64,000 bases of DNA from Chiloscyllium plagiosum (lineage: Eukaryota), in NCBI RefSeq assembly GCF_004010195.1, contig NC_057755.1, forward strand, positions 10,201,989-10,265,988, read 5' to 3'. Shown in pieces: positions 5,393-39,895 of the stretch. A model generated the notes under the pieces. The model made no database searches. It saw nothing but the letters and a program-made list of their open reading frames with translations, and was not told where the DNA came from. Every line of letters starts with the position of its first letter. Within the stretch, counting starts at the first letter, position 1. The position numbers and the translations under genes were made by a program.

Positions 5393-5785
5393 CTGTTCCA
5401 ATTCTCTTTGTTCTTCCAGGCGTGTCGAAAAAAGTGTTCATTCCATCTGGAGGCATGTTGTCACTGGGAACGATGATTGAAATGTTCTCCTTTTGCTGAA
5501 GACCAGTTGTTTTGGGATCTCTCTTTGGACTGGGACTTGCAGGGGTACTCTTCACTCTGTCCAGTTCATTCTGAGGTGTGGTATTTGAGAAAAATTGGAT
5601 CATATTTTCAACATGTCCGACTCTACAATACTGCAATTCATCCTGCAGTGGATTCTGAGGTAATTGAACGTTTCCACCATCCTGGGTCTCCCTGTTATGA
5701 CGGAAACATGCTGAGTCTGTTGTCATGTTGCTGAATTCCTCACGCTTGTGCGGGTCCATGTAATCTCCATGCAGAACAGGAATAT
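5393..5785 (-). CDS. Tail exon type E, 393 nt, phase 1-1 (DIPVLHGDYMDPHKREEFSNMTTDS...KRIGT)
   Basis: ttccttgaag| acceptor, CAG|gtgaga donor, fully open (ORF 5346..5759). Confidence 0.55.
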
Positions 5786-6583
5786 CTTCAAGGAAAAAAA
5801 AGCAAATGTATAAAAAGAATAAGAAAGCACAATTATTTCGATTTCTTTGATGTTAATGTTGGCTGGGCACAATGTAATACGCTTTTCAATAACTGGATAC
5901 TTTCTAAGTTGTCCACTTTCAAATACCTTCAGGTGTTCACTGTTCTGTAACATTATTATAACAACATAATTAATTAAACATTTTTTATACTTCAATATGT
6001 GAAATTAAAATCAATTCCACAGTTGTTACCTTAACACCATTTTGAATATATTTGAAAAAATTGTTCTCCCAACATAATGTCACTAAATTTTACACGGAAT
6101 ATGTGGAGAGTCAATCCCCCCAAAATTCTTTTATTCCTCTGTTACTGTATATTGACACTGAGACACAAATGATGTTTACAGTCGCAGATATGAGTGCATC
6201 ATTTTCTGTTCCCAAGCAGTGTACAGGACATGTGCAATGAAGAAACCGGAAGCAGCTGACTTATGATGGGATGAAACAGTTGGAAGGAAATCGAGAGATT
6301 TTCAAACATGGCAATTTAGAATGATAAAATCCAGGTGTTGTTGAACTCAGAAATTCTGAATCAAGATTTTATGTAACCTCTTTCTTGAGATAGATTAAAG
6401 AAGTATAAATTGTGAACATCAGAGCATGTCTGCATTCCTGATAACAATATTAACAGTCTCACATAGGGAGGAACAACAAATAAAGTAAAAGAGAATGAGC
6501 ACGTTGATAATGGTTTCCTGGATGAAATTAAATCTTTCTCGGTATATTAATTTAACTGAATGTGTCATGGTGACTGTTCTCAC

Positions 6584-6976
6584 ATGCACCGAGACCCTTT
6601 ATTTTCCCTGTCGTGTCAAAAAAAGTATTCATTCCATCTGGGCACATGTTACCACTGGGAACGCTGATTGTAATGTTCTCCTCTTGCTGAAGACCAGTTG
6701 GTTCTGGATTCCTCAGTCGACTGGAACTTGCATGGGTACTCTTCACATGGACAATTTCCTACTGAGGTGTTGTATTTGAGAACATTGGGATAATAGTTAT
6801 AACGTGTCCCTCTCTACATAACTGCATTTCATCTTCCAATTGTTTACGAGGTGATTCCATATTTACACAGTGTTGCTTCTCTCTATTGTGAGGTAAAATT
6901 GCTGAGACTGTTGTAGTACTTCTGAATTCCTCTCTCACTTTTGGATCCAAGGCATCTCCATGCAGACCAGCACTTT
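6584..6976 (-). pseudogene. 393-nt type E exon copy with nonsense codon
   Basis: Sister of 12103-12495; in-frame TAG at 6759-6761 where the sister has AAG. Confidence 0.65.
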
Positions 6977-7526
6977 CTTCAGAAAGAATTTAAAATGTTC
7001 TTAAACAAATGAAATAGCATCAGATGCTTCCCCTGTTTTGGTGTTTATGTCTGGGCATAACGGTTTACAGTTTTCAAAAACGTGACACTTTCCATGTTGT
7101 TCTTGTTCAAATTCCTTTAGATGTTTACTATTCTATAGCGTTAATATAACTAACTTAGCATTTTACATATTTCAATATCAGACATGAAATTCAATTCTCC
7201 AGTTCGTACCTAAAGTGCATTTTGAATATATTTGAAGAATATGCTTTCCCAACGTCGATGTCATTTAATTTAGACCGAACATTACTGGATTTTCTCCTGG
7301 TCTCTGGGCAATTAGACATCACCCTTAAGGACTGATACAGCCCACATTACTCGAATGAATAAAGAATACATATGTCCGTTCTATGAAACAAAAGAGATCT
7401 CACAGAATGCTTGTGCATGTATGCTGTTTTCATGGTCTCCATATGGATGAGGTTGTGGAGCTGAATCTCCACTCATGGCATTCCTAGGTTTAAGAGGTGA
7501 AAACAATGACTGCAGATGCTGGAAAC

Positions 7527-8026
7527 NNNNNNNNNNNNNNNNNNNNNNNNNNNNNNNNNNNNNNNNNNNNNNNNNNNNNNNNNNNNNNNNNNNNNNNNNN
7601 NNNNNNNNNNNNNNNNNNNNNNNNNNNNNNNNNNNNNNNNNNNNNNNNNNNNNNNNNNNNNNNNNNNNNNNNNNNNNNNNNNNNNNNNNNNNNNNNNNNN
7701 NNNNNNNNNNNNNNNNNNNNNNNNNNNNNNNNNNNNNNNNNNNNNNNNNNNNNNNNNNNNNNNNNNNNNNNNNNNNNNNNNNNNNNNNNNNNNNNNNNNN
7801 NNNNNNNNNNNNNNNNNNNNNNNNNNNNNNNNNNNNNNNNNNNNNNNNNNNNNNNNNNNNNNNNNNNNNNNNNNNNNNNNNNNNNNNNNNNNNNNNNNNN
7901 NNNNNNNNNNNNNNNNNNNNNNNNNNNNNNNNNNNNNNNNNNNNNNNNNNNNNNNNNNNNNNNNNNNNNNNNNNNNNNNNNNNNNNNNNNNNNNNNNNNN
8001 NNNNNNNNNNNNNNNNNNNNNNNNNN
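7527..8026. other. Assembly gap (500 N)
   Basis: Run of N. Confidence 1.
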
Positions 8027-8529
8027 CCTTGCCCTGCCTCCAGGAAGGCTGAAAGATTACGGTGAGTTTTCCCACAGTTCTGACTCTCACAACTGCCACA
8101 GTAAACTTTGAAACAGGTTTCTACGTAACTTCTTTCTTGAGATAGATCAATGAACTATAAATTGTAAGCATCAGAGAATGTCTGCATTCCTGATAACAAT
8201 GTTAATGTTAACGATCAACAGTCCATTCAACACTCCTTCCTCATCAATTTTAAATCCCTCCCATGACAAAGATACCTGCTCTGTCACAGCCTCCCTTGGA
8301 ATATTCTGCAGAAGTTGTGATTAGTCGAGTTTTCTATTGGATGCCCTTACCTCCCGTTTGCTAGTTCCGTTGTTTAATGACCTGGGCGATGTATTTATTC
8401 CCAAAGATTTAACACTGTGCAAAACCCCCCATCATATATTATCCACATTACGTTACCTAACATGAGTGGCTTTCTTTCGATAGAATTACCTGCCTCTCGA
8501 TACTAATTTAGTACAATACAAAGGCAGGC

Positions 8530-9350
8530 ATGAGGAAGTTCCACCAGTATCTTTATGGATGAGAATTTGTCATTGTATCGATCACAAATCTCAGCTCGGG
8601 CTACTGAAGGAAGACAAGGTGATGCAGCTTCCAGTCAAATTCAACGTTGGATCCTTATTCTCAGCACTTGCAAGGACAAGTTCGAACACCATCGTGGAAG
8701 CCAAGTGGCTAATGTAGATGCTTTGGGCCCCCTCCCAGTTGCAGATATTCACCCCGTTGGTGTCTTCCTTTGAAGAATCTGTTTTAGCTCAATCTTTCTG
8801 GATGCACATCCACCCACTGTGAACATTACCTGACTGTGGACACAAGAAGATCGTGTCCTGTGGACAGAAACAGCTGAGGGGCAAGTGTGATCGTCCCAAG
8901 TAATGATCACCCCCAGATCATAACCGACCTCTGCCAGGATCATCCAGGGAGTTCCAAGATGGAGATGCTGGTGAGGAGTTATGGTGACCAGGATTGAATG
9001 CCAACGTAGCTGCGTTGGTGGGATAGTGCCCCGAGTGCCAACAAGGACATGAATTGTCACCAACAGTACCCCTACATTCATGGGCACGCCCGGGAACACC
9101 CTGGATTCATTGGCTGTGCTGATCCTTTCATTGGCTGAATGTTCCGAGTCATTGCAGACGCGCATTGAAAAATGCTGGACGTACGTCAGATTTGTTCACC
9201 AAACTCAGGAGCAATGATTAACAAGGTGCAAGCATTGTTCGTGATACACGGATCCTCGGAAGTATAAGTCACTGACAATGGAATGTCATTTACCATCAGG
9301 AATTTTGAAAATTTCCTAAAGTCAAATGGCATTCAGCACATAAGGACAGT
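8530..9350 (+). mobile_element. Degenerate Gypsy LTR-retrotransposon pol fragment (RNase H end and integrase)
   Basis: IQRWILILS..FEHHRGSQVANVDAL; HPG..KM..VRSY..CPECQ zinc finger; VTDNG..F..FLKSNGIQHIRT. Confidence 0.8.
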
Positions 9351-9351
9351 A

Positions 9352-9798
9352 TTGAAAGTGTGTTGCTGGAAAAGCACAGCAGGTCAAGCAGCATCTGAGG
9401 GTGAGGAGAATTGATGTTTCGGGCATAAGCCCTTCATCAGGGATGGGTCTGATGGGCCAGGGGAGCTGAAAGATAAATGGGAGGAGGGTGGGGTGGGAGT
9501 GGGTGGGGGGGCAGGTACCAGAAAGTGGAATAGGTAGATGAAGGTGAGGGAGAAGGGGAGAGCTCGGACAGAGGGTAAAGTGAATAGATGGCAAAGGTGA
9601 TGGACAAGTCAGGAGGCAGGCTTGCAACTCGGAAAATGTGGGGGGAGGGGAAAGGAGGAAACTATTGATATCCACACTGACCCACGTGGTTTCAGGGTCT
9701 CGAGGCGGAATATGAGGTGTTCCTCCTCCAGGCATCGGGTGGTAATGGTTTGACGGTGAAGGAGGTCCAGGATCTGCATGTTCTTGATGGAGTGGGAG
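9352..9798 (-). mobile_element. Penelope-like element 3' fragment with degenerate hammerhead motif
   Basis: Same family as 19855-20780; minus strand reads CTGATGA-agggc-ttat-gccc-GAAACATC at about 9412-9440. Confidence 0.7.
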
Positions 9799-10577
9799 AT
9801 TGCTTTATTCCTCTGTTACTGTATATTGACACTGAGACACAAATGATCTTTTCAGTCGCAGATACGAGTGAATCATTTTCTATTCCCAAGCAGTGTACAG
9901 GACATGTGCAATGAAGAAACCCGAAGCAGCTGACTTATGATGGGTTGAAACAGTTTGAAGGAAATGGAGAGATTTGCAAACATGGCAATTTAGAATGATA
10001 AAATCCAGGTGTTGTTGAACTCAGAGCAATTTCGCTGTCAGTGAGTCTCGCTAGTGATTGGGAAATGGGACTTGGTGAGAGGATTGATAAAGGACAGGAA
10101 ACTGACCGTGGACAAACACGGCATTTTCATACTGATAGACCGGTATTAGTGTGTGCTATAAGAGTGATAAGAATACAGAAACGGTGACATGTCAGGACAA
10201 CAACTGTATTGTAGGAGTGTCATGTTGTTCTGAAAATGTCGGAGAGATTCAAAAATTCATGAGGCTCGTTTTATCCAAAAACAAGTCAACAGCCGAAACG
10301 ATTCACTTACTTTACAGAAGAAAACTGCCACAGTAAACTTTGAAACAGGTTTCTCCGTAACTTCTTTCTTGTGATAAATCAATGAACTATAAATTGTAAG
10401 TATCAGAGAATGTCTGCATTCCTGATAACAATGTTAACAGTCTCACGCAGGAGTGAATAACAAATAAAGTAAAAGAGAATGAGCACTTTGATAGTGGTCC
10501 CCTGGATGAAATTATTTTTTTCTCGGTATATTAATTAAACACAATGTGACCACTGAATGCATGGTCACTGTTCTCAC

Positions 10578-10970
10578 CTGTTACACTTCTCTTTGTTCTC
10601 CCAGCCGTGTTGAAAAGACTGCTCCTTGCAGCCGGAGGCATGTTGTCACTGGGAACGCTGATTGAAATGCTCTCCTTTTGCTGTCGATCAGTTGTTTTGG
10701 GATCAATCTTTGGATGGAGAATTGCAGGTGTACTCTTCAATTTGTCTAGTTCATTCTGAGGTGGTTGATGTGAGAAAAATTGGACCAAATTTTTAACACG
10801 TCCGATACTACAATGCTGCAGTTTATCCTGCTGTGTTTTCTGAGGTAATTGAACGTTTGCACCATCCTGGGTCTCCCTGTTATGAAGGAAACTTGCTGAG
10901 TCAGTTGTCATGTTTCTAAATTCCTCACGCTTGTAAGGCTCCATGTAATCTCTATGCTGAACAGAAATAT
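10578..10970 (-). CDS. Tail exon type E, 393 nt, phase 1-1 (DISVQHRDYMEPYKREEFRNMTTDS...KRSVT)
   Basis: Long polypyrimidine tract with ttccttgaag| acceptor, CAG|gtgaga donor, fully open; could alternatively read through to TAA at 10531. Confidence 0.55.
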
Positions 10971-12102
10971 CTTCAAGGAAAAAAAAACAACAAAAGCATG
11001 AAAAGCATGAGAAAGCAAAATTATTTCGATTTCTTTGATGTCAATGTTGGCTGGGCACAATGTAATACGCTTTTCAATAACTGGATACTTTCTGTGTTGT
11101 CCACTTTCAAATACCTTCAGGTGTTCACTGTTCTGTAACATTATTATAACAATATAATTAATTAAACAATTTTTCATATTTCAATGTGAGAAATGAAAAT
11201 CAATTCCACAGTTGTTACCTTAACAGCATTTTGTATATATTTGAAAAATTTGTTCTCCCAACAGTAATGTCACTAAAGTTTACACGGAATATGTGACGAG
11301 TCAATACCCCGAAGATTCCTTTATTCCTCTGTTACTGTATATTGACACTGAGACACAAATTATCTTTACAGTCGCAGATACGAGTAAATCATTTTCTGTT
11401 CCCAAGCAGTGTACAGGACATGTGCAATGAAGAAACCGGAAGCAGCTGACTTATGATGGGATGAAACAGTTTGAAGGAAATGGAGAGATTTGCAAACATG
11501 GCAATTTAGAATGATAAAATCCAGGTGTTGTTGAATTCAGAGCAAAATGGACGTCACTAATCCAAGCTAACGAAATGGAAATGGTGCCTGGTGTATGGAT
11601 CAACAAAGGAAAGGAAACTGTCCGTGGGACAAACAGATCAGTTTCAAGCTGACAGACTGGTATTAGTGGGTGCTACAAGGGTGATAAGAATATACAGACG
11701 GTCAGATGTCATGTCAGTGACTGTATTGTAGGAGTGGCACTTTGTTCTGAACATATCAGACAGTGGTAAACAGGCATGAGGCTTGTCTTATCCAAAAAAA
11801 TACATGTCAACAGCCAAAATGATTCAATTATTTTACAAAAGGAAACTGCAATAGTAATTTCTGAACCACGATTTTGTGTAACTTCTTTCTTGAGATAGAA
11901 TAATGAAGTATAAATTGTAAATATAAGAACATATCTGCATTCCTGATAACAATATTAACAGTCTCACACTGGGAGGAACAGCAAATAAAGTAAAAGAGAA
12001 TGAGCACTTTGATAGTGGTTCCCTGGATGTAATTAAGTCTTTCTCGGTATATTCATTATACAGAATGTGTCAGCGGACTTCATGCATGGTCACTTTTCTC
12101 AC

Positions 12103-12495
12103 TTGCTCCTGGACCCTCTATTTTCCCTGTCGCGTCCAAAAAAGTGTTAATTCCATTTGGGCGCATGTTACCACTGGGAATGCTGATTGTAATGTTCTCC
12201 TCTTGCTGAAGAACAGTTGGTACTGGATTCCTCAGTGGACTTGGACTTGCAGGGGTAATCTTCACATGGTCCATTTCCTTCTGAGGCGTTGTATTTGACG
12301 ACATTGGGATTATAGTTTTAACGTGTCACTCTCTACATAACAGGAGTTCATCTTCCAATTGTTTACGAAATGATTCCATATTTGCATGGTGTTGCTCCTC
12401 CCTATTATGAGGTAAAATTGCCGAGACTGTTGCAGTAGTTCTGAATTCCTCACTCGCTTTTGGATCCAAGGTATCTCCAGGCAGACTAGCACTTT
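12103..12495 (-). pseudogene. 393-nt type E exon copy with nonsense codon
   Basis: ttctgaag| ... |gtgaga retained; in-frame TGA at 12326-12328 where the 6.8-kb copy has GGA. Confidence 0.65.
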
Positions 12496-12922
12496 CTTCA
12501 GAAAGAATTTAAAATGTTCGTAAACAAATGAAATAGCATCACATGCTTCCCCTGTTTTGTTGTTTATGTCTGGACATAACGGCTTACAGTTTTCAAAAAC
12601 GTGATACTTTCCGTGTTGTTCTTGTTCAAATTCCTTTAGATGTTTACTATTCTATGGCATTAATATAACCAGCTTAGCATTTTACATATTTCAATACCAG
12701 GCATGAAATTCAATTCCCCAGTTCGTACCTTAAGTGCATTTTGCACATATTTGAAGAATATGCTTTCCCAACGTCGATGTCATTTAATTTAGACCGAATA
12801 TTACTGGATTTTCTCCTGGTCTCTGGGCAATTAGACATCACCCTTAAAGAGTGATACAGCCCACATTACACGAATGAATAAAGAATAAACATGTCCGTTC
12901 TATGAAACAAAAGAGATCTCAC

Positions 12923-13070
12923 AGAATGCTTGTGTATGTATGCTGTTTTCATGGTCTCCATTTGGATGAGGTTGTGGAGCTGAATATCCACTCATGGCAT
13001 TCCTGGGTTTAATGTCATTGCAAATGTCCATAAACAGCAGTGTTTCAGTCACAACATTTTTCTCTTTGTT
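12923..13070 (-). pseudogene. Pseudo-exon, type D3
   Basis: NKEKNVVTETLLFMDICNDIKP homology; acceptor mutated to taacAA; a further partial copy at about 7403-7493. Confidence 0.6.
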
Positions 13071-15907
13071 TTGTTAGAGCAAGATTATAATTCGTCGGTA
13101 AGGGGGTGATATTCTGTGTTGACAATGAACAGAGCAAGGGAACTGGGTTTGATGTCAACTCTCGGTTGCTGAAAATGTGTTGCTGGAAAAGCGCAGCAGG
13201 TCAGGCAGCATCCAGGGAACAGGAGAATCGACGTTTCGGGCATAAGCAAAGATTCCAACTTACTACGAATCCTCTTACAAGGATGCCTTCCTTGAAGAAG
13301 CTCTCTTCCTCCCTCTACAAAGCTTTCTCCCTATCAACTCTCGGTGAACGTCTGTGTGCAGTTTACGCTTTCTGTGGATGTAGAGGTTAGGCACATTAGG
13401 CAGGGGTAAATGTAGCATAATCGGGTAGGGGAATGGGTCTGGGTGGGGCACTGTTAGGAGAGTTGGTCTGCACTTTTTGGGTCAAAGGACCTGTTTCCAC
13501 TCTATAGAGAATCTATGAGAATATGATTCTCCTTGAGTCTGTGAGGGTTTCCTCACACAGTCCAAAGATTTGCAGGTTTGGTCGAATGGCCCCAGCAGGT
13601 TGTCCAAATAGTCAGGGATGTACAGGCTACGGAGATTACCCACAATACATGTAAGGGTAAAGTGATAATCCTGAGTGAAATATTCTTCAAATTGGGTGAC
13701 TGATGAAACTTACACGATGAGGTTCTATGGTTCTAACTTATTAATTTGACAAATGCCGAATGAGTTGCATTATGGTTACTTTCCTGTGACTGAAACTGCC
13801 TTTAAATGTCAAATTAAGGAGAACAATTCTCCCCAACTACTTCCTTTTACATTTTGCATGTTTGGAATGGCAGGCAGTAACAAGATCTCACCTGTGTGAT
13901 ATAGCTGTTAACTGTAGAAATCTTAAGGAATCCCTGCCTCACAGTATTAGGTGCTAGACATGGTACTGGCGTCTACAAATGCAGAAGTCACAGATATATT
14001 TCGAGTCAGATCAGTTTTACTCATCCTTTTTTTGAATACATGTGAGGAGCGATGTATCAGAATAAAGATGTGAAGAGCACAAATGAAAGGCGTAGAGCGG
14101 TTGACAACATTGAGCCAACTGGACGCTAACCAGGGAATATTATTTGTTCTCAGAGGCAAGGATGCCGATATGATATGCAATAGAGAGGGAAGGTTACAAA
14201 TCCAAAAGATGGGGTAATCAGGAGATGTCTGGGTTAGTCATGTTGAATGTAGGTAAAGCCCATCGTCAGGTCGACAGCTATTTCGACAACCAGAATGTAT
14301 CGCACAGAGGAGAACTGGAGATTGTAATGGTTATCGCAGATATGAAACTTTAAGGACTCAGGTGAGATCATTGTAAATAAGAACTACATTAATTATATTC
14401 AGCCACTCGCATGAAAGTGGAATTTGTGCATCCTGAAGTGAATTTTGTATTGTTCATAGATATGTAAGTGTATGCATTAACACTGTCTAAATGTACGAGA
14501 TGCAATATTTACTTCCTTTGGAAGCCACTGAAATCATTCTGATCTAAGAGTAATCCTCGGCTTTCGTGTGAAAAAGGATTGAAAAGTACGAATTGAACGA
14601 ATTAATCATTTCATAAACGCATATACTCTACAGTGAAAAAGCAGTAAAAGAAATCAAAAGCTCTCAACCTGTTGCCACGATCTAGCAACATTTTGAATAG
14701 TTATACGAATAAGGATAAAACAAAATAGTTATTGTCGAAAGTATGTCCATCAGTCCTGAGCCAGCTTATTATCACTGACTGCCGGACAACTGCCATTCCT
14801 CCAAAGGTTTGCCGCTATCGACTCCAGAATCAACCAATGTTGAAGGCACCAATCCTCAAGCAGCATCTTTTGCAACGCGGCTGATTCTCCTCACAACGCC
14901 TCGCTGTCAACTACGATATTCCCCCTAATACCAGCTTGTCATCTCCTGCTGCTGGACTAAGTTCACTGATGTGGACATAATGTTCTTCTGCTACTGCTTC
15001 GCCACCAGTGCAAGAACCAACTAGCGGCAAAGTCACCAACCCTGAGGCGCGCCTCTTTTCATTGTTGGACTTATTGTAGCCAATGTCACCTCTGCTAACA
15101 TAGCAGTCACCGATACCAATGGGAGATTTAATGCCCATCCCAAGAAAGGTAAAAAAAAGGCTCATTTGAGTTCACAGTGGGCCAACTCACTGTCTCACTC
15201 ACTTCTGCTGTTATCGCCCAAGCTCAGGAGAAGAGAGTGAGTAAAGGAAAGCAAAATGAAAAGGAATGAGGAAGCAAGAAAAAGAGGAAACACCAAAAAA
15301 AGGTCAGCCATAGCGGAAGAGTCCAGGCTAACGACCTTTACTCCACTGCAAATCTGATGAAAAAATTGCATGTGAAATGCAGTAGTTTGGTAACAATAAA
15401 CTGTTGTAAAATCATAGAGACCTCGAATCATAGAATCCCTGCAGTGAAGAAACAGGCCATTTGCCCCAAAGGGGCCGCATGAATCTCCAAATGACATCCC
15501 ACCCTTGTCCACTTTCTCCAAAACCACGAAAAACATTTCGATTTTACCATCGTTAACATCACATGACCACGTATTCCTGGATAGTCGGTGGCACTTTTAA
15601 TAAGCATGGCCAATCCACCTAACCTACACATCTTTGCAGCAGACAAGATCGGTCCTTTGGCACATCATGTCTTGCTGCCCATGAACAGTGATCTAACTAT
15701 TGTAAACCTATTTGCCAGCACTTGGCCCAGATCCTTGCATGTCTTGGCCCTTCTTCTCAAATAAGATTGTGCATTGGACAGCAATTATTTTACACAAATC
15801 ATAATGCAAATTCATGAAAATGGAATTACCAGAAAAATATAATTCCTGTTAATTTTAGCATAGAATAATATCTCTTTCTCACAAAGGAACGGCGAATTTA
15901 CATTGAC

Positions 15908-17297: not shown

Positions 17298-17439
17298 CAG
17301 ATACATTTTGGCCATTTTTATGGGTTTCATTTGGATGGTGTTGTCGAACTGAATAAGCATTCTCTGCATCCGTGGGTTTAATGTCATTGCAAGTGTCATT
17401 ACCACATAGTTTTTCAGTCACAGAATTTTCCTCTTTGTT
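17298..17439 (-). CDS. Tail exon type D2, 142 nt (NKEENSVTEKLCGNDTCNDIK...KNGQNVS)
   Basis: ccaaacag| ... CTG|gtgagt; phase 0 to 1, open. Confidence 0.6.
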
Positions 17440-21142: not shown

Positions 21143-21284
21143 CAGAAACATTTTTGCTGTTTTCATGCTCTCCACTTGGATGAAGTTGTCGAGATGATTC
21201 TGCATTCGTTTCAGCCGTGAGTTTAATGTCATTGCAATTGTCCTTACAGCATAATGTAGCAGTCATAGCATTTCCCTCTTTGTT
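21143..21284 (-). CDS. Tail exon type D1, 142 nt (NKEGNAMTATLCCKDNCNDIK...ENSKNVS)
   Basis: tccaacag| ... CTG|gtgaga; phase 0 to 1, open; paralogues at 17298, 12923 and about 7403. Confidence 0.65.
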
Positions 21285-24929: not shown

Positions 24930-25080
24930 CAAAACCATCTGTGTTTGTATCAGAATGATGTTCCTTTTTTTCTTCCAGTCCTGGATTCCACTTTTCGATC
25001 AAGTTATTTGTCGGGCTGACATCCTCATTAGAACTATCACCAATGACTATAGTTTCCATATGTGTATTTTCCTCTTGGTG
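24930..25080 (-). CDS. Tail exon, diverged type A, 151 nt (HQEENTHMETIVIGDSS...HHSDTNTDGF)
   Basis: tttacttag| ... TTG|gtaaga; phase 0 to 1, open; shares Q..N..ME, NPG and HH pattern with the 145-nt exons. Confidence 0.65.
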
Positions 25081-25464: not shown

Positions 25465-25634
25465 CTCTAATTCTCCCTGAATAAGTGCATTCTTTTGAAA
25501 CTGTTTTGGATGCATACTGTCCACAGATTCCTCATCATTTTCAGATGGACTGCCCTGATGTCTGACTGTGTCTTTAGACAGCTCAGAGCCAGCCATCGTT
25601 GACTCAATGGATGCAGCTGCAACATTACCGTCCA
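25465..25634 (-). CDS. Tail exon type B2, 170 nt (VDGNVAAASIESTMAGSELSK...LIQGELE)
   Basis: ttttacag| ... GAG|gtatgt; phase 1 to 0, open; within ORF 25450..25713. Confidence 0.7.
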
Positions 25635-26281: not shown

Positions 26282-26426
26282 CAGCTGTACAGTCGTTTCT
26301 ACCATTTCCATGGTGTTTATTTTCCTGCAGACCTGGATTTTCACCCTCAATGATCAGGTGCGTCGTGTCTATGCTGTCAGTATCATGGCTGTGCAGACTT
26401 TCCATGGTTGCATTTTGATTTTGGCC
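26282..26426 (-). CDS. Tail exon type A2, 145 nt (GQNQNATMESLHSHDTDSID...GNGRNDCTA)
   Basis: atatttag| ... CTG|gtgagt; phase 0 to 1, open. Confidence 0.7.
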
Positions 26427-27842: not shown

Positions 27843-27929
27843 ATATCTGCCAAAGGAATGACCAGCCAGATAGCAATAAATTGCAGGTATAAGTTGCAAG
27901 GAATAGCGACTGAAATGTTATCTGTTTCC

Positions 27930-29160: not shown

Positions 29161-29804
29161 GAATTCCAGATCATTTATTTGTTCCCATTACTAGTTTGAG
29201 GGATGACATCTCTGAAGGACACAAATATCTGCAACGTGTAACTGAAGAAGCCTCTTTTTGATCATAAAATATGACAACTGCATTATTGGAGCAGGATTAT
29301 CGGATGTAAGTCACTAATATTCTTCTCTGCCACATCACGGCCAAGCCATTTGACATATTTCAAAACATTATGAAGCGTCACAGAAATATTCTCATTAACA
29401 TGAAATCTCCTGTCACTCCTTGTGTCATAGCTATTGATCTCAAGTAGAGTTTCAGGGTGTTTTTTGTGGAAATTCCTTAATTCTACCTTGACTGTTGTCC
29501 TTTGATAATTGGGTGAGTAAGGCCAGGAAGAGAGACACTGAAGAGCCATATTGAAATAGCATTGGATACATTGTACTTGGTCATTTAAACGTTTCTTTTT
29601 CCTTCAGCTGGCTTCAAGAATGAGACACTTTTTTTATTTTTATGAGCTTAATAACCTCTTTCCACCGTATTGCGATTATACGATTCGAAACCAAATAGGA
29701 TTTAAACAATTCAGAACATAACTTCACAATTTAGACCCTGAATTTTTTCACCATCTGTGGAAACATCCATTCCATTTCTCAATGGTTTCAATACTAAATA
29801 CAAT

Positions 29805-30690
29805 GTTGTGGTTCTGTTCGCCGAGCTGGAAATGTTTGTGGCAAACGTTTCATCCCTTGTCTAGGTGACATTCTCAGTGCTTGGGAGCTTCCTGTGAAGC
29901 GCTTCAGTGGATTTTCCTCCGGCATTTGTAGTGGCCTGTCCCTGCCGCTTCCGGTTGTCAGTTTCAGCTGTCTGCTGTAGTGGCCAGTATATTGGGTCCA
30001 GGTAGATGTGTTTGTTGATGGAATTTGTAGATGAGTGCCATGCTTCCAGGAATTTCCTGGCTGTTCTTTGTTTGGCTTGCCCTATAATGGTAGTGTTGTC
30101 CCAGTCGAATTCATGTTGCTTGTCGTCTGCGTGCGTGGCTACTAAGGATAGCTGGTCGTGGCGTTTCGTGGTTAGTTGATGTTCATGGATGCGGATCGTT
30201 AGCTGTCTTCTTGTTTGTCCTATATAGTGTTTTATGCAGTACTTGCATGGGATTTTGTACACTGCATTAGTTTTGCTCATGCTGGGTATCGGGTCCTTCG
30301 TTCTGGTGAGTTGCTGTCTGAGGTTGGCTGTTGGTTTGTGTGCTGTTATAAGTCCTTGTGGTCGCAGTAGTCTGGCTGTCAGTTCTGAAATGCTCCTGAT
30401 GTATGGTAGTGTGGCTAGTCCTTTGGGTTGTGGCATGTCCTCGTTCCGTTGTCTTTCTCTTACATCGACCTGGACCCAATAAGGACAGCTGAAACTGACA
30501 ACCGGAAGCGGCAGGGACAGACCACTATAAATGCCGGAGGAAACACCACAGAAGCGCTTCACAGGAGGCTCCCAAGCACTGAGGATGTCACCGAGACAGG
30601 GGACGAAACGTTTGCAACAAAAATTTCCAGCTCGGCGAACAGAACCACAACAACGAGCACCCGAGCTACAAATCGTCACCCAAACTTTGA
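29805..30690 (-). mobile_element. Penelope-like element with inverted terminal copy and 12-bp target-site duplication
   Basis: TNAVYKIPCKYCIKHYIGQTRRQLTIRIHEH GIY-YIG; about 29805-30010 inverted at about 30462-30652; ACTAAATACAAT at 29793-29804 and 30691-30702. Confidence 0.92.
30576..30615 (+). ncRNA. Minimal type I hammerhead ribozyme motif in the Penelope terminal repeat
   Basis: gca-CTGAGGA-t-gtcacc-gagaca-ggggac-GAAA-CG-TT-tgc: conserved core, stem II, palindromic minimal stem III, gca/tgc stem I. Confidence 0.65.
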
Positions 30691-31067
30691 ACTAAATACA
30701 ATTCCTGGCAGTTGAGATGTTCAAGAATCAATGAACGACAAATACAAGTGGTTTGATTTCTAATCAATGCAGTAGGCTTACTATATGGTACTCCCATTAT
30801 ATCCGACTAAATTTCTTTCTTATTGGTCATAAGGGAGGACTGGCGTGTCAGGTTGAAGGATGAAAGAAGGTTGAAACACCGGAGTACATTTACGTGGACT
30901 CGAGGCTGAGTGGTTAATGGTTCGTATGCAAAATATAAAAGTGAATATTAGGACTTGGTGGTAATTCTATGCAGTGTGTTTACACTTGGAAGAGTATATT
31001 GAACATAACATTGTTAATACCTAGATGACATCAGGATCAAGATAATATACATTGATGTTAAACCTAC

Positions 31068-31237
31068 CTCCAATTCTCCCTGATTGAGTGTATCCTGTTG
31101 AAACTGTTTTGGCTGCATACTGCCCAAAGGTCTCTCATCATTTTCAGATGGACTGCCCTGTTGTCTTTCTCCATGTTTGGATAGCTCAGGGCCAGCTATC
31201 ATTGACTCATTGTGTGCAGCTGCAACATTATCGCCCT
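31068..31237 (-). CDS. Tail exon type B1, 170 nt (EGDNVAAAHNESMIAGPELSK...LNQGELE)
   Basis: ttaatag| ... GAG|gtaggt; phase 1 to 0, open; paralogue at 25465-25634. Confidence 0.7.
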
Positions 31238-32730
31238 CTATTAAATGAACATGGAGAAAACTAAAGCTGGAGAGTTACAAGTGAAGATGTAAAAATCTGG
31301 ATTGAGGCTGTTGTCAGGAGAAACGATTTAATGCGTGTTTTTACTCACTACAAAATGGCTTCTTAATGCAAATAACATAAAACAATATAACAAAATGACT
31401 TCTCTGAAAACTATATTCTTAAATGAATTGATAGAGATTAGTAAGCAATGCTGTGTTCATAGCCTAAGTTAACTAAGCGATACAGCACATTATTAAATTA
31501 TTCAAAATTGGCCTTGGAAACCAGATTAAGACGAGAAAACAAGTTAGTTCCCAGGAAACATCATTGGCTTAATATTATGTCTATTTGTCATATCATTTCA
31601 CTTTATTGGATTACTTTTGAAATGATGGTTCTTCTGTTTGTTTTTAAAAAAAAGCCTACAATAGTTGTTCGCATTTTAGGATAAGTGTACGGCTTTTCCA
31701 GAGTACACAGAAGTGTTTCAATTCTGTCTTGCTGGATAACCTCTGCACAGTGTCATAATAAATTGCTGAAGCTTGCTAAACGAGACCAAGCTGCTAGTAA
31801 TCATTTGACTAATTGCAGAACCGAGGGGCCCTTCCCGGAGTCAAGATCGTCACAGGATATGACAAACCATTCAAGAATCATCCATTTATCAACATCATGT
31901 GCTGCATTTAAATGTTCATGACTTCCACATTAAACACACAGTGAATGGAAGCCAAATTAGTTGTATTCACTGTATATATGTGTCATAACCTTTCTATATT
32001 CTCCAACTGGGCTTTCGCACACGTCCAATTCCATTGATAATATTATCACCTGCTTATCCAAAATGCAGACAACATGAAGTGCATGTTTGCATCTGTGATA
32101 ACTCCCCCGCCCCTTCTCTGATTGTAACCTTTGCATGGGCATAAAACAATGAATCGATAAGTGATTACACTGCATTGTTAAGATGGAATGCAATTGGCTG
32201 AATATTCACTCATCACCGCTACCTCAATCTAGACACCTGGAGAACAATATTCAACCCGACGCCTGTTCCACCAGAATCCGTCAGGAATCATGTCAGAGTT
32301 GTATTTTAGAAGCTGTAACTTGAAAAAGTTGGATCTTGTTGACTTGCATCATGTGAGCTGAAGACGTTTCCATTCATTACTAAGGCTAAAGCACATTGAT
32401 GAATATTCACACACTGAAATGGTGGGCATAAGAGTGAAGATTGATTGATTATCACAAATACTGAAGTGTTTGGGAGGTATGGGCTGAGGGGGATAGGAGG
32501 CGTTTGCCGAGGGATAGTGAGCACTGATCTCCGAGCAGGGTCTTTCAGAAACTTAGTGAACATTTTGTTGCATTGTGCCGGATCATCCCTGAGAAAGAGC
32601 GAGACAGACAGAGGGAGGAAGGAAGAGAGATAGTGAGAGAGACGGGGGGTAGATAGAGAACTACTGGTGGCAACAAGGGTTCGTCAATATAAACCATGAG
32701 TGAATAAATTAAAAACGCAAATTAACTCAC

Positions 32731-32875
32731 CAGCTGCACAGTCGTTTCTACCATTTCCGTGGTGTTTATTTTCCTGCGGACCTGGATTTTCTTCCTCACT
32801 GATCACGTGCGTCGTGTCTTTGCTGTCAGTATCATGACTGTGCAGAATTTCCATGCGTGCATTTTGATCTTGATC
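32731..32875 (-). CDS. Tail exon type A1, 145 nt (DQDQNARMEILHSHDTDSKD...GNGRNDCAA)
   Basis: atatttag| ... CTG|gtgagt; phase 0 to 1, open; close paralogue at 26282-26426 with the same splice sites. Confidence 0.7.
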
Positions 32876-34348
32876 CTAAATATGACAAAGATATGGTTAG
32901 GTGTTTTATAGCTGAGTTCTTAGGATTTCTGTTTGTGATTCACATATCACTCGCTAGACTCAATCCAGAGACCCTAGTCATATTCTGGGAATGGAGTTTG
33001 AATCCCGCCACAGCTAACGGTGGAATTTGAATTCAACAAAAATATCTGAAATCAAGTGTCTAACGACAGTGAATCCCTTGTTGAATGTTGTAAAAAAACG
33101 TCTGATTCATCAATGTCCTTTTACAGAAACAAGCGGACATCCTTCCCTGGTCCGGCCTCCATGTGACTCCAGACTCAGAGCAATGTGGTTGACACTTAAC
33201 TTTAATTATAGATGCGCAATAAATGCTGGCCAACCATCAATGTTCTCATCCCATGAATGTATTTAAAAACAAACCTAACACAGACTCAAGGAGAATGTGC
33301 AAACACCACACGGACAGTCTGCAGAGACTGGAAACAAATCCAAGTGCATGGAATTGTGAGGTACATGTGCTAACCAATGAGCCACCATTATATCCATAGT
33401 ACAGAAATCCTTAAAACAAATGCATATTTTTGAAGTGTTTGTTGTGCCAGAATTGAAACGACAATGTCATCAAATTATCTTGGGTGCATAATTTGTTAAA
33501 CAAAAATGCAGTAGTTTCTTCATTCTGCCTCCAATATCATTGGTAATACCTGGTAACTCAAACACGTTCACAATTCTCCATACCGAGCTCCACTTACAGC
33601 GTGAGGGCACATTAGTACAGAGACCTCCGATGTTTTTGGTACCTACAGCTCTTATTTCCCTTTTCAAATCCACAGTTCGATCTTCTTCGCGTCATGAAGG
33701 AAATATAGAAACTCTGTGTTTCTTCTATTCATTTACAGTAGAGAATTTCAGATGTTTATCTGTTCCTCACTTTATGCGCTATCCTTCTGTTTTATTGCCC
33801 CTCGCTGAGCCTAATGTGACTTTCTGAATTCCTTTCTGATGTCTTCTCACAAACTACATTCCTACCACATTGTTTCAACAGCATACTGAAGGGGAGATTA
33901 TGTCCTGTAGTTCTACTGCTGGATTGTTAATGCAGAAACCGAAGTAATGCCCTGTGTACCCAGCTTCAAGTCCTCCAATGGCAGATATTGTCATTTGCAT
34001 TCTAAATGTAATCTCACGCTGGTTATGAATTTACACAAATACTGAACTTCTAACTGCTATTAGAATCAATAAAACAACTGCTTCATTAAACTATTTTAAT
34101 TAGATAAATCATAATGTAATTTCATTAATATCAGTAATGATGGTCGGACATGCCATTGCAATATTCTCGCTGGTTCTGTCTATGCCATTTGCCGAGAAGT
34201 GCGAGGGAGAAGAAAAGTTCAGTCTTACCGTTTAAAAGACTTATTTCAGGTGTCAAGGTCTCCATTTGCCGAGAGTAGTGAAATAATTCTGGGAAGTTTT
34301 AAAGTGGCTGAGCTCTGAACTCGAGACCCTACACCTCCCACCCACATG

Positions 34349-34632
34349 GTTAGATTACATTACAGTGTGGAAACAGGCCCTTCGGCCCAACAAGTCCACA
34401 TCGACCCGCCGAAGCGCAACCCACCCATTTCCCTACATTTACTTCTTTACCTAACACTACGGACAATTTAGCAATTCACCTGACCTGCACATCTTTGGAC
34501 GGTGGGAGGAAACCGGAGCACCCGGAGGAAACCCACGCAGACACGGGGAGATTGTGCAAACTCCACACAGTCAGTCGCCTGAGTCGGGAATTGAACCCGG
34601 GTCTCTGGCGCTGTGAGGCAGCAGTACTAACC
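34349..34632 (-). mobile_element. HE1-type tRNA-derived shark SINE, well preserved
   Basis: GGGCGGCACGGTGGCACAGTGGTTAG (A box), GGGTTCAATTCCCG (B box), TGTGTGGAGTTTGCACA core, CR1-like tail. Confidence 0.85.
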
Positions 34633-37600
34633 ACTGTGCCACCGTGCCGCCCACGTCCTCCAGAAATCGTGGTACATATTGGCACCAGTGATATAGCCAG
34701 GAAAGGGACTGAGGATCTAAAAGGTGACTGCATAGAATTAGGTTGGAAGCTGAAGATCAGTACGAGTAGAGTAGTTATCTCAGGTTTGCTACAAGTGCCA
34801 CGAGATAGTTAGATGTGGAACAGTTAGCGAGTGCAGCTTAACACGTGGCTGCAAGGCTTGTGCAGGAGGGAGGGCTTCAGATACCGAGACCATTGGGATA
34901 TATTCTGGGGAAGGTGGGACCTGTACATGAAGGACGGGTTGGACCTGAACCGGAGGGGCACAAATGTCCTGGGTGGGAGATTTGCTGATATGATTTGGAA
35001 GGGTTTAAACTTGCTTGGTGGGGTGGTGGGGTGGGGTTGGGAATCAAAGCCACATGTCTGAGAGGGGGTCCGTTGCAGATGGGACAGTGACAGGATATAT
35101 TGAATCTATCAGGAAGGTTTCTCATGTGATGAAAGGAAGGGATCGGTTAAAGTGTGTGTGCTTTAATGCAAGGAGTGTCCGAAGTAAGAGTGACGAACTT
35201 AGAGCATGGATCAGTACTTGGAGATACGATGTGCCCATAAGGAGACGTGGGTTTCACAGGGGCAGGAATGGTTGCTTGATATTCCAGGGTTTAGAACGTT
35301 TAAAAAGAACAGGGAGTGTGGAAAAAGAGGAGGGGGTGTAGCATTGCTAATCAGAGAGTGCATCACAGCTACAGAAACGAAGGTTATTGTGGAAAGTTTG
35401 TCTACTGAGTCATTATGACTGGAAGTTAGGAACAGCAAAAGAACAGCCATAGTATTGGGAGTTTTCTACAGACCACCTAAGAGCAAGAGAGAAATTGAAG
35501 TTCTCAAAGGTGGGCAGATTCTGGTGAAATGCAAACGTAGCAGGGTTATTGTCATGGGTGATTTCAACTTTCCGAATATCGACTAGAAGCTCTTAAGTGC
35601 AAATGGTTTGCGTGGAGCCGTTTGAGTCAGGTGTGCTCAGGAGAGTTTCCTTAATCAGTATGTCCACAGACCGTCCAGGGGAGAGAGCATTTTTGATTTG
35701 GTGCTCGGCAAAGAGCCAGGACATGTGTCAGATCTCATGGTGGGTGAGCTCTATGGCAAAAGTGATCACAACTGCCTCACATTCCTGAAGAAGGGCTAAT
35801 GCCCGAAACGTCGATTCTCCTGTTCCCAAGATGCTGCCTGACCTGCTGCGCTTTTCCAGCAACACATTTCCATCTCTGATCTCCAGCATCTGCAGACCTC
35901 ACTTTCTCCTCACATTTAGCATAGCCTTGGAGAGTGAAAGGAGCAGTTACCAAGGGAAAATATTTAATTGGGGGAAAGGAAAATATGACGCTATCAGACA
36001 GGAGTAGGGAAGTACAGAATATGAGCAATTGTTCCACAGAAAGGGCACAGTAGACATATGGAGACAATTTAAGGAGCAGTTGTTGCGAGTGATGCACAAA
36101 TTTGTTCCTCTGAGACAGGCAAGAATGGGTAAGATTAAGGAACCTTGGATGACGTGTTTAAAAAAAAATCACACAACACCAGGTCAGAGTCCAGTATTTG
36201 TCCAGTTTTAATTCCATCTGCATTTCTCAGCCCAGCTCTGCATCCTGTCTCTGTCGCGCTGCAACCTGCAGTAGCCCTCTATACTATTGACGACACCTCC
36301 AACCTTTATGTCATCTGAAAATTTGCCAACTCACCCCTCAATCTACTCATCAAAGTCAACTGCAAACAGCAGACGCCTAAGAACAGAGCCCTGCGGGACA
36401 CATTCAACACTGACCTTCAGGCAGAATACTTTCCATCTACAACCACCCTCTGCCTTCTGTCAGCCAGCCAATTCTGAATCTAGTTAGCCAAAAGGTTTAA
36501 TTGGAAGCACATTAGCTTTCGGAGCGACGCTCCTTCGTCTGGTGATAGTCTTGGATGAAGAGAACAGAGGAACGTTTTGTCAAAAGAAAGAAGGTCACTT
36601 ACATAAGGTGGAGGAAGTAAGGATCTAGCACAACATTAGAAAATTACAGGCTTGCTAGAAAGGAGCTCAGAAGTGGACTGAGGAGAGCCAGGCGGGGGCA
36701 CGAAAAAGGCTTGGCAAGAAGAATTAGGGAGAACCCAAAGGCATTTACTCGTTCGTGAGGAATACGAGAATGACCAGGGAGAAGATAGGGCCGAGCAGGG
36801 ATAGCGTAGGGAACTTGTGCGTGGAGTCTGAGCAGATCGGGGAAGCTCTACATGATTTTTTGCTTCGGTTTTCACCAAGGAAAAGGAACTTGTTGTTAAT
36901 GAAAATTTTGAGGAGCTGGGATACAGTCTTGACCAGATCAAGATTGATGTAGCTGATCTGCTAGAACGTTTGGAAAACATTAAGATTTCTACATTCCAAG
37001 GGCCGGACCAAATTTATCCGAGGCTGCTCTGTGAAGCTGAAAAGGAGGTTGCTAATTGGAAGGAAGCGATGCTGTTCCTCTTTTCAAGAAGGGCAATAAG
37101 GAAATCCCTGGCAATTACAGACCAGTCAGTCCTACGTCTGTGGTCAACAAAGTTTTGGAAAGAATTATGAGGGATGGGATTCATGACTATTTGGCAACGG
37201 ATAGTCTGATTAAAGGCAGTCAGCATGGCTGTGTGAGGGGAAGGTTCTGCCTCACAAATCTTATTGAGTTCTTTGAGGAGTAGTTATGGTGTATATGGAC
37301 CTCAGCAAGGCATTTGATAGGCTTCCCCATGGTAAGCTCATTCATAAAGTTATGAAGTATGGGATACAGGGAGTTTTGGCTAACTAGATTCAAACTTGCC
37401 TGGCTGACAGATGGCAGAGAGTGTTTGTAGATGGAAAGTATTCTGACTGAAGGTCAGTGTTGAATGGTGTCCCGCAGGGCTCTGTTCTTAGGCCTCTGCT
37501 CTCTGCAGTTGACTTTGATGTGTAGATTGAGGGGTGAGTTAGCAAATTTGCAGATGACGCAAAGGTTGGAGGTGTCGTCAATAGTATAGAGGGCTACTGC

Positions 37601-38462
37601 AGGTTGCAGCGCGACAGAGACAGGATGCAGAGGTGGGCTGAGAAATGCAGATGGAATTCAAACTGGATAAATGTGAAGTTATGCATTTTGGAAGTTCGAA
37701 TTCGAATGCTGAATACAGGGTTAAAGACAGGATTCTTGGCGGTGTGGAGGAACAAAGGCATCTGGATGTGCAAGTACATAGATCCCTCAAAGTTGCCACC
37801 CAACTGGATAGGGTTGTTAAGAAAGCATATGGTGTTTTGGCTCTCATTAGCAGGGGGATCAAATTTAAGAGCTGCAAGGATTTGCTGCAGCTCTACATGT
37901 CCCTGTTGAGGCCACACTTGAAATATTGTGTACAGTTCTGGTTGCCGTTCTGTAGGAAAGATACAGAAGCTTTGGACAGGGTGCAAAGGAGATTTACCAC
38001 GATGCTGCCTGGACTGGAAGGCTTGCCTTATGAAGAGAGGTTGAAAAAGGTAGGACTTTTTCTCTCTGGAGAGAAGGAGGAAGAGAGGAGACCTGATCGA
38101 GGTTCACAAACTGATGAGAAGAATAGATAGAATCAATAGCCAGAGACGTTTCCCCAGAGCAGGGTGGAATGTTACGAGAAGTCATAGTTTGAAGATAGTA
38201 GGAGGAAGGTATAAAGGAGACGTCGGGTAGGTTCTTTACGCAGAGAGTTGTGAATTATTGGAATGCGTTGCCAGCTGTGGTGATGGAAGCAGAATCATTG
38301 GAGACAGTTAAGCGACTGAAGGGCATGCACCTGGAAAGCAGTGGGTTGAGGTCTGCGTCGGTTAAGTTACTATATTTTACATTAGGATTAAATCTCCGCA
38401 CAACATCGTGGTCCAAAGGGCCTATTCTGTGCTGTACTTTTCTACATTATTTTCTATGTTCT
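34633..38462 (+). mobile_element. Near full-length decayed CR1 LINE (ORF1 SGNH-esterase, APE endonuclease, RT) with nested insertions
   Basis: IVVHIGTSD, VVISGLL, DGLDLNRRG; CFNARSVRSK, MGDFNFP; PGNYRPVS, RPHLKYCVQFW; ttctatgttct tail. Confidence 0.92.
35781..35910 (+). mobile_element. ~130-bp Penelope-derived element carrying an intact minimal hammerhead core (35781-35816)
   Basis: attc-CTGAAGA-agggc-taat-gccc-GAAA-CG-TC-gatt; cctcacatt at 35775-35783 and 35908-35916. Confidence 0.8.
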
Positions 38463-38964
38463 CTGAAAGCATGACCACCGATTAGACTGAATTGTCAGAG
38501 TAACAGAGGAATCTTGGGATGCTTGTCCAATGATCCTTGAAGGTAACTGTGCAAGTTAACAGGGTGTTAAGAAGGCCGATGTGTCTTTCTCAGTCATTGT
38601 ATCAATAATAAGAGCAGAGAGGTTCAGGTGCAGCTGTACAGTAGTTTTGCCAGGCTATATCTGAATTACTGATGTCAGTTCTAGTCCCGACACTTTAGGA
38701 AGGATTGAATTGGATTGCCTAGGAGGAGCATATCATCGTGGAAGAGAGGTTGGAAAAGCTTGGAATAGAAAGGATCAGAGGCGACCTGATTGAGGTGCAT
38801 AGGATTATGAGGACGATAGACAGCGTGAATAAAGTGCAGTTGTTCCCCTTTCTCGAAGGGTCTACAACAAGGAAGCATATTTTTGAATTGAAAGACAAGA
38901 GGTTTAAGGGCATTTGAGGACAAATGATTTCACCCAGAGAATGGTGGATATCTATTATGCGTTT

Positions 38965-39278
38965 CCTTATTAGATAAGATTCCCTACAGTGTAAAAACAG
39001 GCCCTTCCACTCAACAAGTCCACACCAACCGACCGAAGAGTAACCCACTCAAAGCCATTTCCCTCTGGCTAATACAACTAACACTTTGGGCAATTTTGCA
39101 TGGCCAATTCACCTAACCTTTACATCCTTGGACTGTGGAAGGAAACAGAATCTCTCGGAGGTAACCCACACAGACACAGGGAGAATTATAAAACTCCACA
39201 CAGACAGTCGCCCGAAGCTGGAATTGAACCTGTGTTCCTGGTGATGTGAGGCAACAATGCTCACCACCGTACTGCCCC
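38965..39278 (-). mobile_element. HE1-type SINE, inserted in a CR1 3' fragment
   Basis: Homologous to 34349-34632. Confidence 0.8.
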
Positions 39279-39494
39279 ATAGGAATTTGAGGCAAGAAAT
39301 CTCACAAAAATTTAAAAAGCACTTGGATGAGCGCATGAATTAACAGAATATTGAAGGCTGCGGGCATAGTGTGACAAAGTGGGCTTGTGCAGATGGCAGC
39401 GTATTTTATGCCATACAGTCTCGATGTGCTGAAGGGTCTCTTTTTTACTGTATGATTCTGTGATACGCAATTTATTATTTTACTTCAGACTCAC

Positions 39495-39572
39495 AGATGC
39501 TGCAGTTAGGGAATATATTTGCTCACACTTGTCGATCTTGATGTCTGAAAGCCGGACTGTATGCCAGCGTCT
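39495..39572 (-). CDS. Tail exon, 78 nt (RRWHTVRLSDIKIDKCEQIYSLTAAS)
   Basis: tccacag| ... TCT|gtgagt; phase 0-0, open; paralogue at 27149-27228. Confidence 0.55.
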
Positions 39573-39816
39573 CTGTGGATATTAATCCATTTGCACGACC
39601 ATCACCATACCTTCCCTTCCACCAGCCCACAGTCTGCTTCACCAGACCTAAAACACCGCTCTGTCATGCTAATCTCCCCCGTTTAGTAGAAATGGCCAGT
39701 ATTCTCTAACATACAACATCCAACATGTTATTTAAGCATTGGCATAAAAATGTTTATTTCTCTCTCTTTCTTTCTAGCTCTCTCTCTCTTTACACACACA
39801 CAAAATGCATAATTAC

Positions 39817-39895
39817 CGTCACCGTCACCAGGTTAAACAGGTGGGTCGAATTCAAAATTTGATGTTCTTCTGTAATTCTGCGATTGTGGATTAAT
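39817..39895 (-). CDS. NLR exon ending the LRR region (LIHNRRITEEHQILNSTHLFNLVTVT)
   Basis: ctttcag| ... ACG|gtaatt; phase 2 to 0, open, continues IRLxxN. Confidence 0.7.

Follow-up and report, generated by a model that had tools for sequence, protein, structure and literature searches.

We analysed a 64,000-nucleotide stretch of the Chiloscyllium plagiosum genome (G000:C46:10201989-10265988, hereafter the window; negative positions continue the same count beyond its left edge) that contains most of an NLR gene on the minus strand. The gene is RefSeq LOC122544084, labelled 'uncharacterized', and each of its six isoforms X1-X6 (XP_043539032-37) was mapped exon by exon. Its domain order is NACHT, short LRR, an acidic linker of 480 to 1,060 residues and one or two CARDs, without FIIND. 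Two CARD-fold exons and the last exon lie outside the window, 1-9 kb beyond its edge. The chain of exons is genuine, and the linker, predicted to be floppy, likely bears a CARD signalling domain at the far end of an NLR. Exon joints are those given by the genome and the RefSeq models. The gene has already been modelled automatically in RefSeq without a name, its CARD was missed by Pfam and its architecture was not remarked on. A literature search, with subscription journals mostly outside it and supplements not covered, found no description of LOC122544084 or of its domain order. Tentatively, and with somewhat less than even confidence, we read the gene as a carpet-shark NLR in reversed domain order, in which duplicated exons would encode a flexible tether that lets NACHT oligomers cluster CARDs.

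A first-pass annotation of this DNA had described duplicated exons of alternating phase downstream of the LRR exons. All 11 of these tail exons, 2,083 nt in total, are present on the minus strand; each is flanked by AG and GT and open in frame, and lengths and phases agree with those proposed. The chain joins into 1,446 codons without a stop, which upholds the claim of a single frame; the form of at least 1,450 residues with both 393-nt exons and a full NACHT can be assembled in frame but matches none of the six RefSeq isoforms. RefSeq models in three carpet sharks support both an NLR whose LRR exons splice to duplicated, phase-alternating modules and the independent expansion of these modules. 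The protein does not end in the tail, however, as had been assumed: the tail is a linker to a folded CARD beyond the window edge. The proposed contrast with NLRP1 therefore holds for the missing FIIND and not for a missing folded C-terminus. Left out so far were seven broken modules between the intact ones and the CARD exons outside the window. When all intact exons of the window gene are joined, they form one frame of 1,555 amino acids with GT-AG at every junction (Table 1). The window copy is partly decayed, with 7 broken modules and the second CARD lost, and a paralog about 140 kb downstream, whose NACHT is 78% identical, is the more intact form. The paralog chain of 23 exons is unbroken, encodes 1,916 amino acids and ends in two CARDs.

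In isoforms X1 and X4 a single protein contains LRR, linker and CARD, with the exons running from exon E2 to the exons at -1071 and -2630 and then to the last exon at -9208. AATAAA occurs past this last coding exon, at -9489 and -10407. The two 393-nt exons never occur together in an isoform; X2 and X3 end in E1, and X5 and X6 end earlier. The odd joints in X1 and X4 (D1 to E2, and a splice inside the NACHT exon) would suggest that they have read support. A look-up of RNA data with the NACHT exon returned no dataset. Across the CARD and last exons, RNA reads from three runs fell on repeats only, with about 2% of the first and 6% of the second run sampled, the second giving no alignments and the third resembling sparse DNA; these reads do not bear on expression.

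The C-terminal domain was modelled with a predicted local distance difference test score (pLDDT) of 88.2 from a 22-row alignment. It is all-helical with one extra N-terminal helix. Eight of the ten best structural matches are titled CARD (Z 9.0-10.0), compared with 6.7 for death domains and 5.4 for pyrin, and superposition (root-mean-square deviation 2.0-3.8 over 80-100 residues) places the six-helix bundle closest to CARDs. Foldseek returned the CARD of ARC with a high probability (0.99) and a weak E-value (1.1), and the ESM Atlas gave CARD clusters at 0.86, which is a lead only. By sequence, the domain of LOC122544084 has no significant Pfam match, and a sequence search of the PDB gave non-significant hits to the CARDs of caspase-1 (E 0.51) and ICEBERG (E 0.74). 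Pfam CARD was found in 3 of 22 family members, and one family member lies above the cut-off. No Pfam FIIND was detected in P0124, P0125, P0126 or P0127, and no C-terminal B30.2/SPRY match in the family members scanned; the linker is coil in the model and low in hydrophobics.

We then compared this domain with ordinary shark and ray NLRs, taken as the best 120 of 221 long matches minus this family. A profile built from seven C-terminal domains matches 113 of these 116 proteins, mostly with E-values of 1e-9 to 1e-15. The matching module lies before the first Walker A in 112 of 116 and after the last Walker A in none. In the C. plagiosum genome, a two-exon module of phases 1-0-1, split at the same column, was found upstream of five of eight other NACHT genes probed; the remaining three have no CARD-like module within 10-20 kb. 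By profile and intron phase, the C-terminal domain, predicted to be a CARD fold, is the N-terminal module of ordinary shark and ray NLRs. The C-terminal CARDs are 21-29% identical to the ordinary ones and form their own clade, and in a fast tree the split between CARD1 and CARD2 predates that of C. punctatum and Stegostoma. DNA of the CARD region is 90-95% identical between the paralogs, introns included, and 90-94% around the first CARD (window -1.7 to -3.4 kb against -134 to -137 kb), compared with about 75% elsewhere, as for most introns; this suggests recent gene conversion. In the window copy, which lacks the second CARD, the last exon is entered in another frame.

A broken tandem pair of the same C-terminal CARD type lies on the opposite strand at G000:C46:10365085-10369237 (+; window +163.1 to +167.3 kb). 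At 19 kb beyond it lies an LRR exon of the same clade, and no NACHT was found between them. The pair and the LRR exon may be remnants of the ordinary arrangement.

The linker is acidic (net -46 in 477 residues) and poor in large hydrophobic residues, and it is predicted to be unfolded, as had been expected, by a FoldIndex of -0.21. It is also coil in the full-length model, which comes from a 14-row alignment, so that low linker pLDDT is weak evidence on its own. Linker exons have the same length as those of the paralog in 8 of 8 pairs, with 0 indels in 1,375 aligned nt. From the rate in 14 of 16 flanks, about 34 frame-breaking gaps would be expected, a figure inflated by noisy flanks; the other two flanks were dropped as poorly aligned. 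Neutral simulation at a divergence of 0.22 changes per site left 1 of 3,000 runs stop-free, in a test where window exons were picked for openness and paralog exons by homology. The absence of indels, the equal lengths and the rarity of stop-free simulations therefore indicate that the linker frame is under selection. The ratio of non-synonymous to synonymous substitution rates (dN/dS) between paralogs is 0.74 (0.50-1.10) for seven exons and about 1.2 for the E exons, with intervals that span 1. Linker estimates in this comparison range over 0.74-0.86, again with intervals including 1, yet the frame is kept. As the intervals span 1, positive selection on the linker was rejected. A frame that is kept while residues drift almost neutrally and length varies would be the pattern of a tether to a downstream domain.

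The modules differ in their history. A-B was doubled only in the window copy, C-D recurs three to four times and E six times; A resembles A', and B weakly resembles C. Seven window modules have been disrupted, whether through loss of a splice site, a stop, an insertion or the N gap, leaving two of six E copies intact, and the copy at 12495-12103 would truncate the protein if included. Within the E array, an assembly gap of 500 N (7527-8026) has duplicated sequence on its two sides; it may hide further modules, or the array may be mis-joined there. Enrichment of protease sites in the linker was rejected, since 1 of 15 motif tests reached p=0.008. The E module has no Pfam and no Atlas relatives. 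Among 1.84 billion representatives it has 7 matches, four from these sharks and three in unrelated repeat proteins, thus no outside relatives; its species range is not fixed by this search, because relatives could hide inside 50% clusters. Searches of the C. plagiosum genome with the E and D exons gave, as lower bounds, matches in the two paralogs and one 6.9-kb contig only. This contig (L038, G000:C87536, 6,890 nt) carries part of a third copy; it is about 89% identical to the window, and D1 comes immediately after the exon-A region. A lone C-type linker exon lies in inverted orientation at window -180720 to -180553 (+).

The NACHT part is encoded in a minus-strand open frame of 574 codons (45961-44240) with Pfam matches to NACHT (E 7.6e-29), HD2 (3.1e-13) and WH (7.9e-05) and a weak match to FISNA (E 0.034). 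The genomic exon carries a GxxGxGKS Walker A, a FIFEDLDK Walker B, a TSR sensor 1 and the winged-helix histidine in FSH. NLRP11 has a similar Walker B, LFILEDLDN (PMC2323615, Table 2). A 'catalytically dead NACHT' was rejected, since DD/ED forms of Walker B occur in Apaf-1, NAIP and NLRP11 according to the same source. Between paralogs, dN/dS is 0.35 (0.26-0.46) for the NACHT exon, 0.33 for the Walker stretch and 0.45 for the LRR exons. LRR-type strands and helices were modelled at pLDDT 76-91, with Pfam LRR_6 only below the cut-off. We did not find a death-fold match before NACHT in P0124, P0001, P0141 or P0148, and exon 1 encodes 46 low-complexity residues.

Other carpet sharks have related models. 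C. punctatum P0001 is NACHT-LRR-linker and ends inside the third E repeat, while Stegostoma P0141 and P0148 are NACHT-LRR-A, or NACHT-LRR with repeated A-B-A'-C blocks. Linker and two CARDs are joined in P0125 (LOC122544125, the RefSeq model of the C. plagiosum paralog), C. punctatum P0126 and Stegostoma P0127, the last of which starts inside a block nearly identical to one in P0148 and lies on a contig of equal length. In models from all three species the LRR cap exon is spliced to exon A. Identity between C. punctatum and Stegostoma is 72% for NACHT, 73% and 66% for the CARDs and 39-47% for the linker. The nearest outside NACHT relatives are those of Heterodontus francisci and Pristis pectinata (P0142-P0146), with 41-48% identity and a DD-type Walker B. 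Together with the LOC122544084 NACHT they form one clade (Shimodaira-Hasegawa approximate likelihood ratio test 100) in a quick, midpoint-rooted tree of 28 chosen rows. These relatives have neither linker nor CARD and end at the LRR cap (P0142 earlier).

Five of the CARD-less proteins, P0142, P0145, P0152 and P0157 of Heterodontus and P0146 of Pristis, have hydrophobic starts (19-residue mean 1.95-2.54), some after a signal-peptide-like start. From these predicted N-termini, they are candidate membrane-anchored NLRs.

How could this order have arisen? We propose that the starting point was a NACHT-LRR gene lacking a CARD, in whose last exon a splice donor arose. This gene would then have been fused to the 5' half, made up of low-complexity exons and two-exon CARD modules, of a gene of NLR type that had no NACHT itself. 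A new donor in a former last exon is plausible because, in the protein comparison, the donor falls at the last few residues of the Heterodontus protein. Alternatively, a NACHT-LRR-A block (phase 1-1) may have been inserted into such a gene, with the same outcome. The LOC122544084 product would work as follows. A trigger would induce a NACHT oligomer as in other NLRs, and the tether would then hold 8-11 CARD-bearing ends within about 15-25 nm, at roughly 0.2-1 mM. This concentration estimate follows from a scaling law. CARD-CARD nucleation would recruit a CARD partner such as ASC or caspase-1. Seeding of CARDs by an upstream oligomer is described as a general inflammasome mechanism in PMC13680356, and ASC and NLRC4 are reported in C. 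plagiosum in bioRxiv 10.64898/2026.07.03.736391.

Several observations weigh against this tethered-CARD reading. The Z-scores of 9-10 fall in the range that the search tool warns about for helical bundles, and dN/dS of the CARDs, 1.18 (0.44-5.8), is uninformative. Only about 4 LRRs remain. Walker B reads FIFEDLDK in the window gene and FIFDDLDK in the paralog, compared with DGLDE in 104 of 115 ordinary relatives scored, and the winged-helix histidine is glutamine in the paralog; ATPase cycling is therefore uncertain. All six isoforms lack Walker A and B (five splice out 45907-45386 and X4 starts downstream), four of the six end before the CARD, and among the annotated proteins examined none has a complete NACHT and a CARD together. 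RefSeq annotates only the last 964 residues of the paralog, from residue 953 of 1,916, and separates Stegostoma P0127 from the NACHT-LRR half. P0126 goes from exon 1 straight to exon B, linker and two CARDs, without NACHT. Finally, read-through of an unspliced LRR cap exon meets a stop after 8 more codons, with AATAAA at 39758. This stop and AATAAA, the separation of the halves in the paralog and Stegostoma, and the Heterodontus and Pristis relatives that end at the LRR cap would all suit two neighbouring genes, a CARD-less NLR that stops after its LRR and, apart from it, a linker-CARD gene, with read-through linking the two only now and then. We consider such an arrangement improbable, as it does not explain the cap-to-A splice shared by the three species, and as exon A is an internal, phase-0 exon without a start ATG, the 295 nt examined in the paralog contain no AATAAA, and P0126 uses the NLR's own type of exon 1.

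The isoforms also bear on what the protein does. Loss of the nucleotide-binding stretch from all six, through copy-specific splice sites (donor and acceptor of the 45907-45386 splice are both absent from the paralog, where the key base differs), would fit a decoy or brake: the products would use their CARDs to bind CARDs or adaptors belonging to the large family of shark NLRs and thereby weaken signalling, and NACHT would be dispensable. P0126 without NACHT points the same way, as do the exon 1 to exon B skip, which is in frame in the window gene too (816 amino acids), and the inhibitor ARC as top Foldseek match, though a common fold proves no function. However, the dN/dS of the Walker stretch indicates translation and selection of this part over most of its past, and the C-terminal CARDs are distant from those of ordinary NLRs. 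Such a role is unlikely for the family and most plausible for the window copy. The end-to-end order shared with NLRP1 (PMC8679799) and a long, exposed, fast-changing linker with module turnover have led us to consider instead a tripwire without FIIND, in which a cut by a microbial or host protease in the linker as bait would free the CARDs from the bulky N-terminal portion to polymerise by the logic of NLRP1 and CARD8 without autoproteolysis; tandem CARDs could seed assembly. With no FIIND/UPA there is no known restraint or seeding domain, the linker shows neither dN/dS above 1 nor enriched protease-type motifs, and purifying selection on NACHT goes beyond the needs of a plain blocker, which makes a tripwire improbable. 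Improbable, too, is the broader proposal that carpet sharks, independently of NLRP1, placed C-terminal CARDs behind an expandable linker of 500-1,000 residues as a FIIND-less protease tripwire, tuned by alternative splicing that removes the nucleotide-binding stretch, the entire NACHT-LRR block or the CARD.

To our knowledge, the C-terminal CARD users known among vertebrate NLRs are NLRP1 and CARD8, both of which depend on FIIND. In its presumed working the LOC122544084 product resembles an NLR, and in outline it resembles NLRP1; FIIND and an N-terminal effector were not found. In NLRP1 (human, and mouse NLRP1B), NACHT-LRR is likewise followed by a C-terminal CARD, which is the signalling end (PMC8679799, PMC13680356). 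In contrast to NLRP1, the shark family has a 480-1,060-residue acidic linker instead of FIIND (ZU5-UPA) and up to two CARDs; its CARD derives from the shark NLR N-terminal module, and the disordered region lies after NACHT, not before. CARD8 shares a disordered region followed by a C-terminal CARD, the outline of the NACHT-less P0126, whereas the shark family has no FIIND, tandem CARDs and a linker of duplicated exons. The elasmobranch expansion of 'NACHT, LRR and PYD domains-containing protein 3-like', which probably corresponds to the NLRP-related family described in PMC8455134, has the same two-exon CARD-like module and a NACHT-WH-HD2-LRR core at 35-39% identity; there the module precedes NACHT, while in LOC122544084 it comes last. 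The CARD-less Heterodontus and Pristis NLRs share the nearest NACHT and, where present, the same LRR region. Unlike teleost NLR-C (FISNA-NACHT-LRR-B30.2), the shark family lacks B30.2/SPRY and its C-terminal domain is all-helical.

If an NLR's own CARD sits C-terminally behind a plain tether, nature would here allow one to ask if the position of the CARD, oligomerisation of NACHT and autoproteolysis can be separated from one another. The lineage would also test the proposal, made in the concluding section of PMC8679799, that NLRs acquired their C-terminal death folds as booby traps. Moreover, NLR domain order would here have been permuted by phase-compatible exon shuffling, with relatives keeping the state before the change. 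Finally, the gene is relevant to the question of how caspase-1 is activated in sharks, which have almost no true NLRP orthologs (PMC8455134).

Table 1. Features of the LOC122544084 gene in and beyond the window, in order of transcription except where noted.
Feature	Position	Strand	Length, phase	Remarks
First coding exon	49538..49676	-	46 codons, phase-1 donor	ATG; low complexity; no death fold
NACHT exon	44241..45954	-	phase 1-2	weak FISNA match, NACHT, WH, HD2, first LRR (Pfam, motifs)
In-frame stretch of NACHT exon	45386..45907	-	522 nt	Walker A and B; spliced out in five of six RefSeq isoforms
LRR exon	40737..40823	-	87 nt, 2-2	
LRR exon	40105..40296	-	192 nt, 2-2	
LRR cap exon	39817..39895	-	79 nt, 2-0	matches terminal exon of Heterodontus and Pristis relatives
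Linker exon A1	32731..32875	-	145 nt, 0-1	
Linker exon B1	31068..31237	-	170 nt, 1-0	
Linker exon A2	26282..26426	-	145 nt	A1 duplicate, this copy only
Linker exon B2	25465..25634	-	170 nt	B1 duplicate
Linker exon A'	24930..25080	-	151 nt, 0-1	distant relative of A
Linker exon C1	23095..23210	-	116 nt, 1-0	
Linker exon D1	21143..21284	-	142 nt, 0-1	
Linker exon C2	18537..18652	-	116 nt, 1-0	alternative acceptors in RefSeq isoforms
Linker exon D2	17298..17439	-	142 nt, 0-1	
Broken module C3	15908..16023	-		acceptor lost, stop
Broken module D3	12923..13070	-		acceptor AG to AA
E-type copy	12103..12495	-		both splice sites kept, in-frame TGA
Intact exon E1	10578..10970	-	393 nt, 1-1	terminal exon (read past donor) in RefSeq X2, X3
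Second D3/E0-type pair	6584..7526	-		beside 500-N gap; D part cut off, E copy with TAG
Intact exon E2	5393..5785	-	393 nt, 1-1	cassette before CARD in RefSeq X1, X4
E-type copy	3234..4284	-		split by inserted repeat, acceptor lost
Broken E-type copy	1743..2029	-		stops
Intron after E2 (contains the two preceding rows)	1..5392	-		runs out of window to three last exons
CARD exon a	G000:C46:10200751-10200917; window -1237 to -1071	-	167 nt, 1-0	
CARD exon b	C46:10199187-10199358; window -2801 to -2630	-	172 nt, 0-1	
Last coding exon and stop	C46:10192746-10192780; window -9242 to -9208	-		

Other features were recorded around the gene. An intronless open reading frame of about 313 codons, which we take to be a seven-helix receptor from its appearance, follows each paralog (window -23905 to -22967 and -151975 to -151031, minus strand) and therefore belongs to the duplicated unit. 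An arrangement with a NACHT immediately following the CARD exons was rejected: the nearest downstream NACHT is broken and distant, at about -59.4 kb, beyond the receptor-like frame, and no NACHT follows the CARDs of the paralog down to -210 kb. On either side of the two paralogs (window -59.4 to -62.5 kb; window +112.4 to +144.0 kb) lie broken NACHT and LRR exons from related NLRs. A 276-codon open reading frame with a GIY-YIG-like motif at window 29864-30691 (-) is presumably a retroelement fragment. Six ray and shark models (P0005-P0010) are 1,600-2,250 amino acids long; most contain the CARD module twice, as a doubled NLR would, and fusion of neighbouring genes may account for them.

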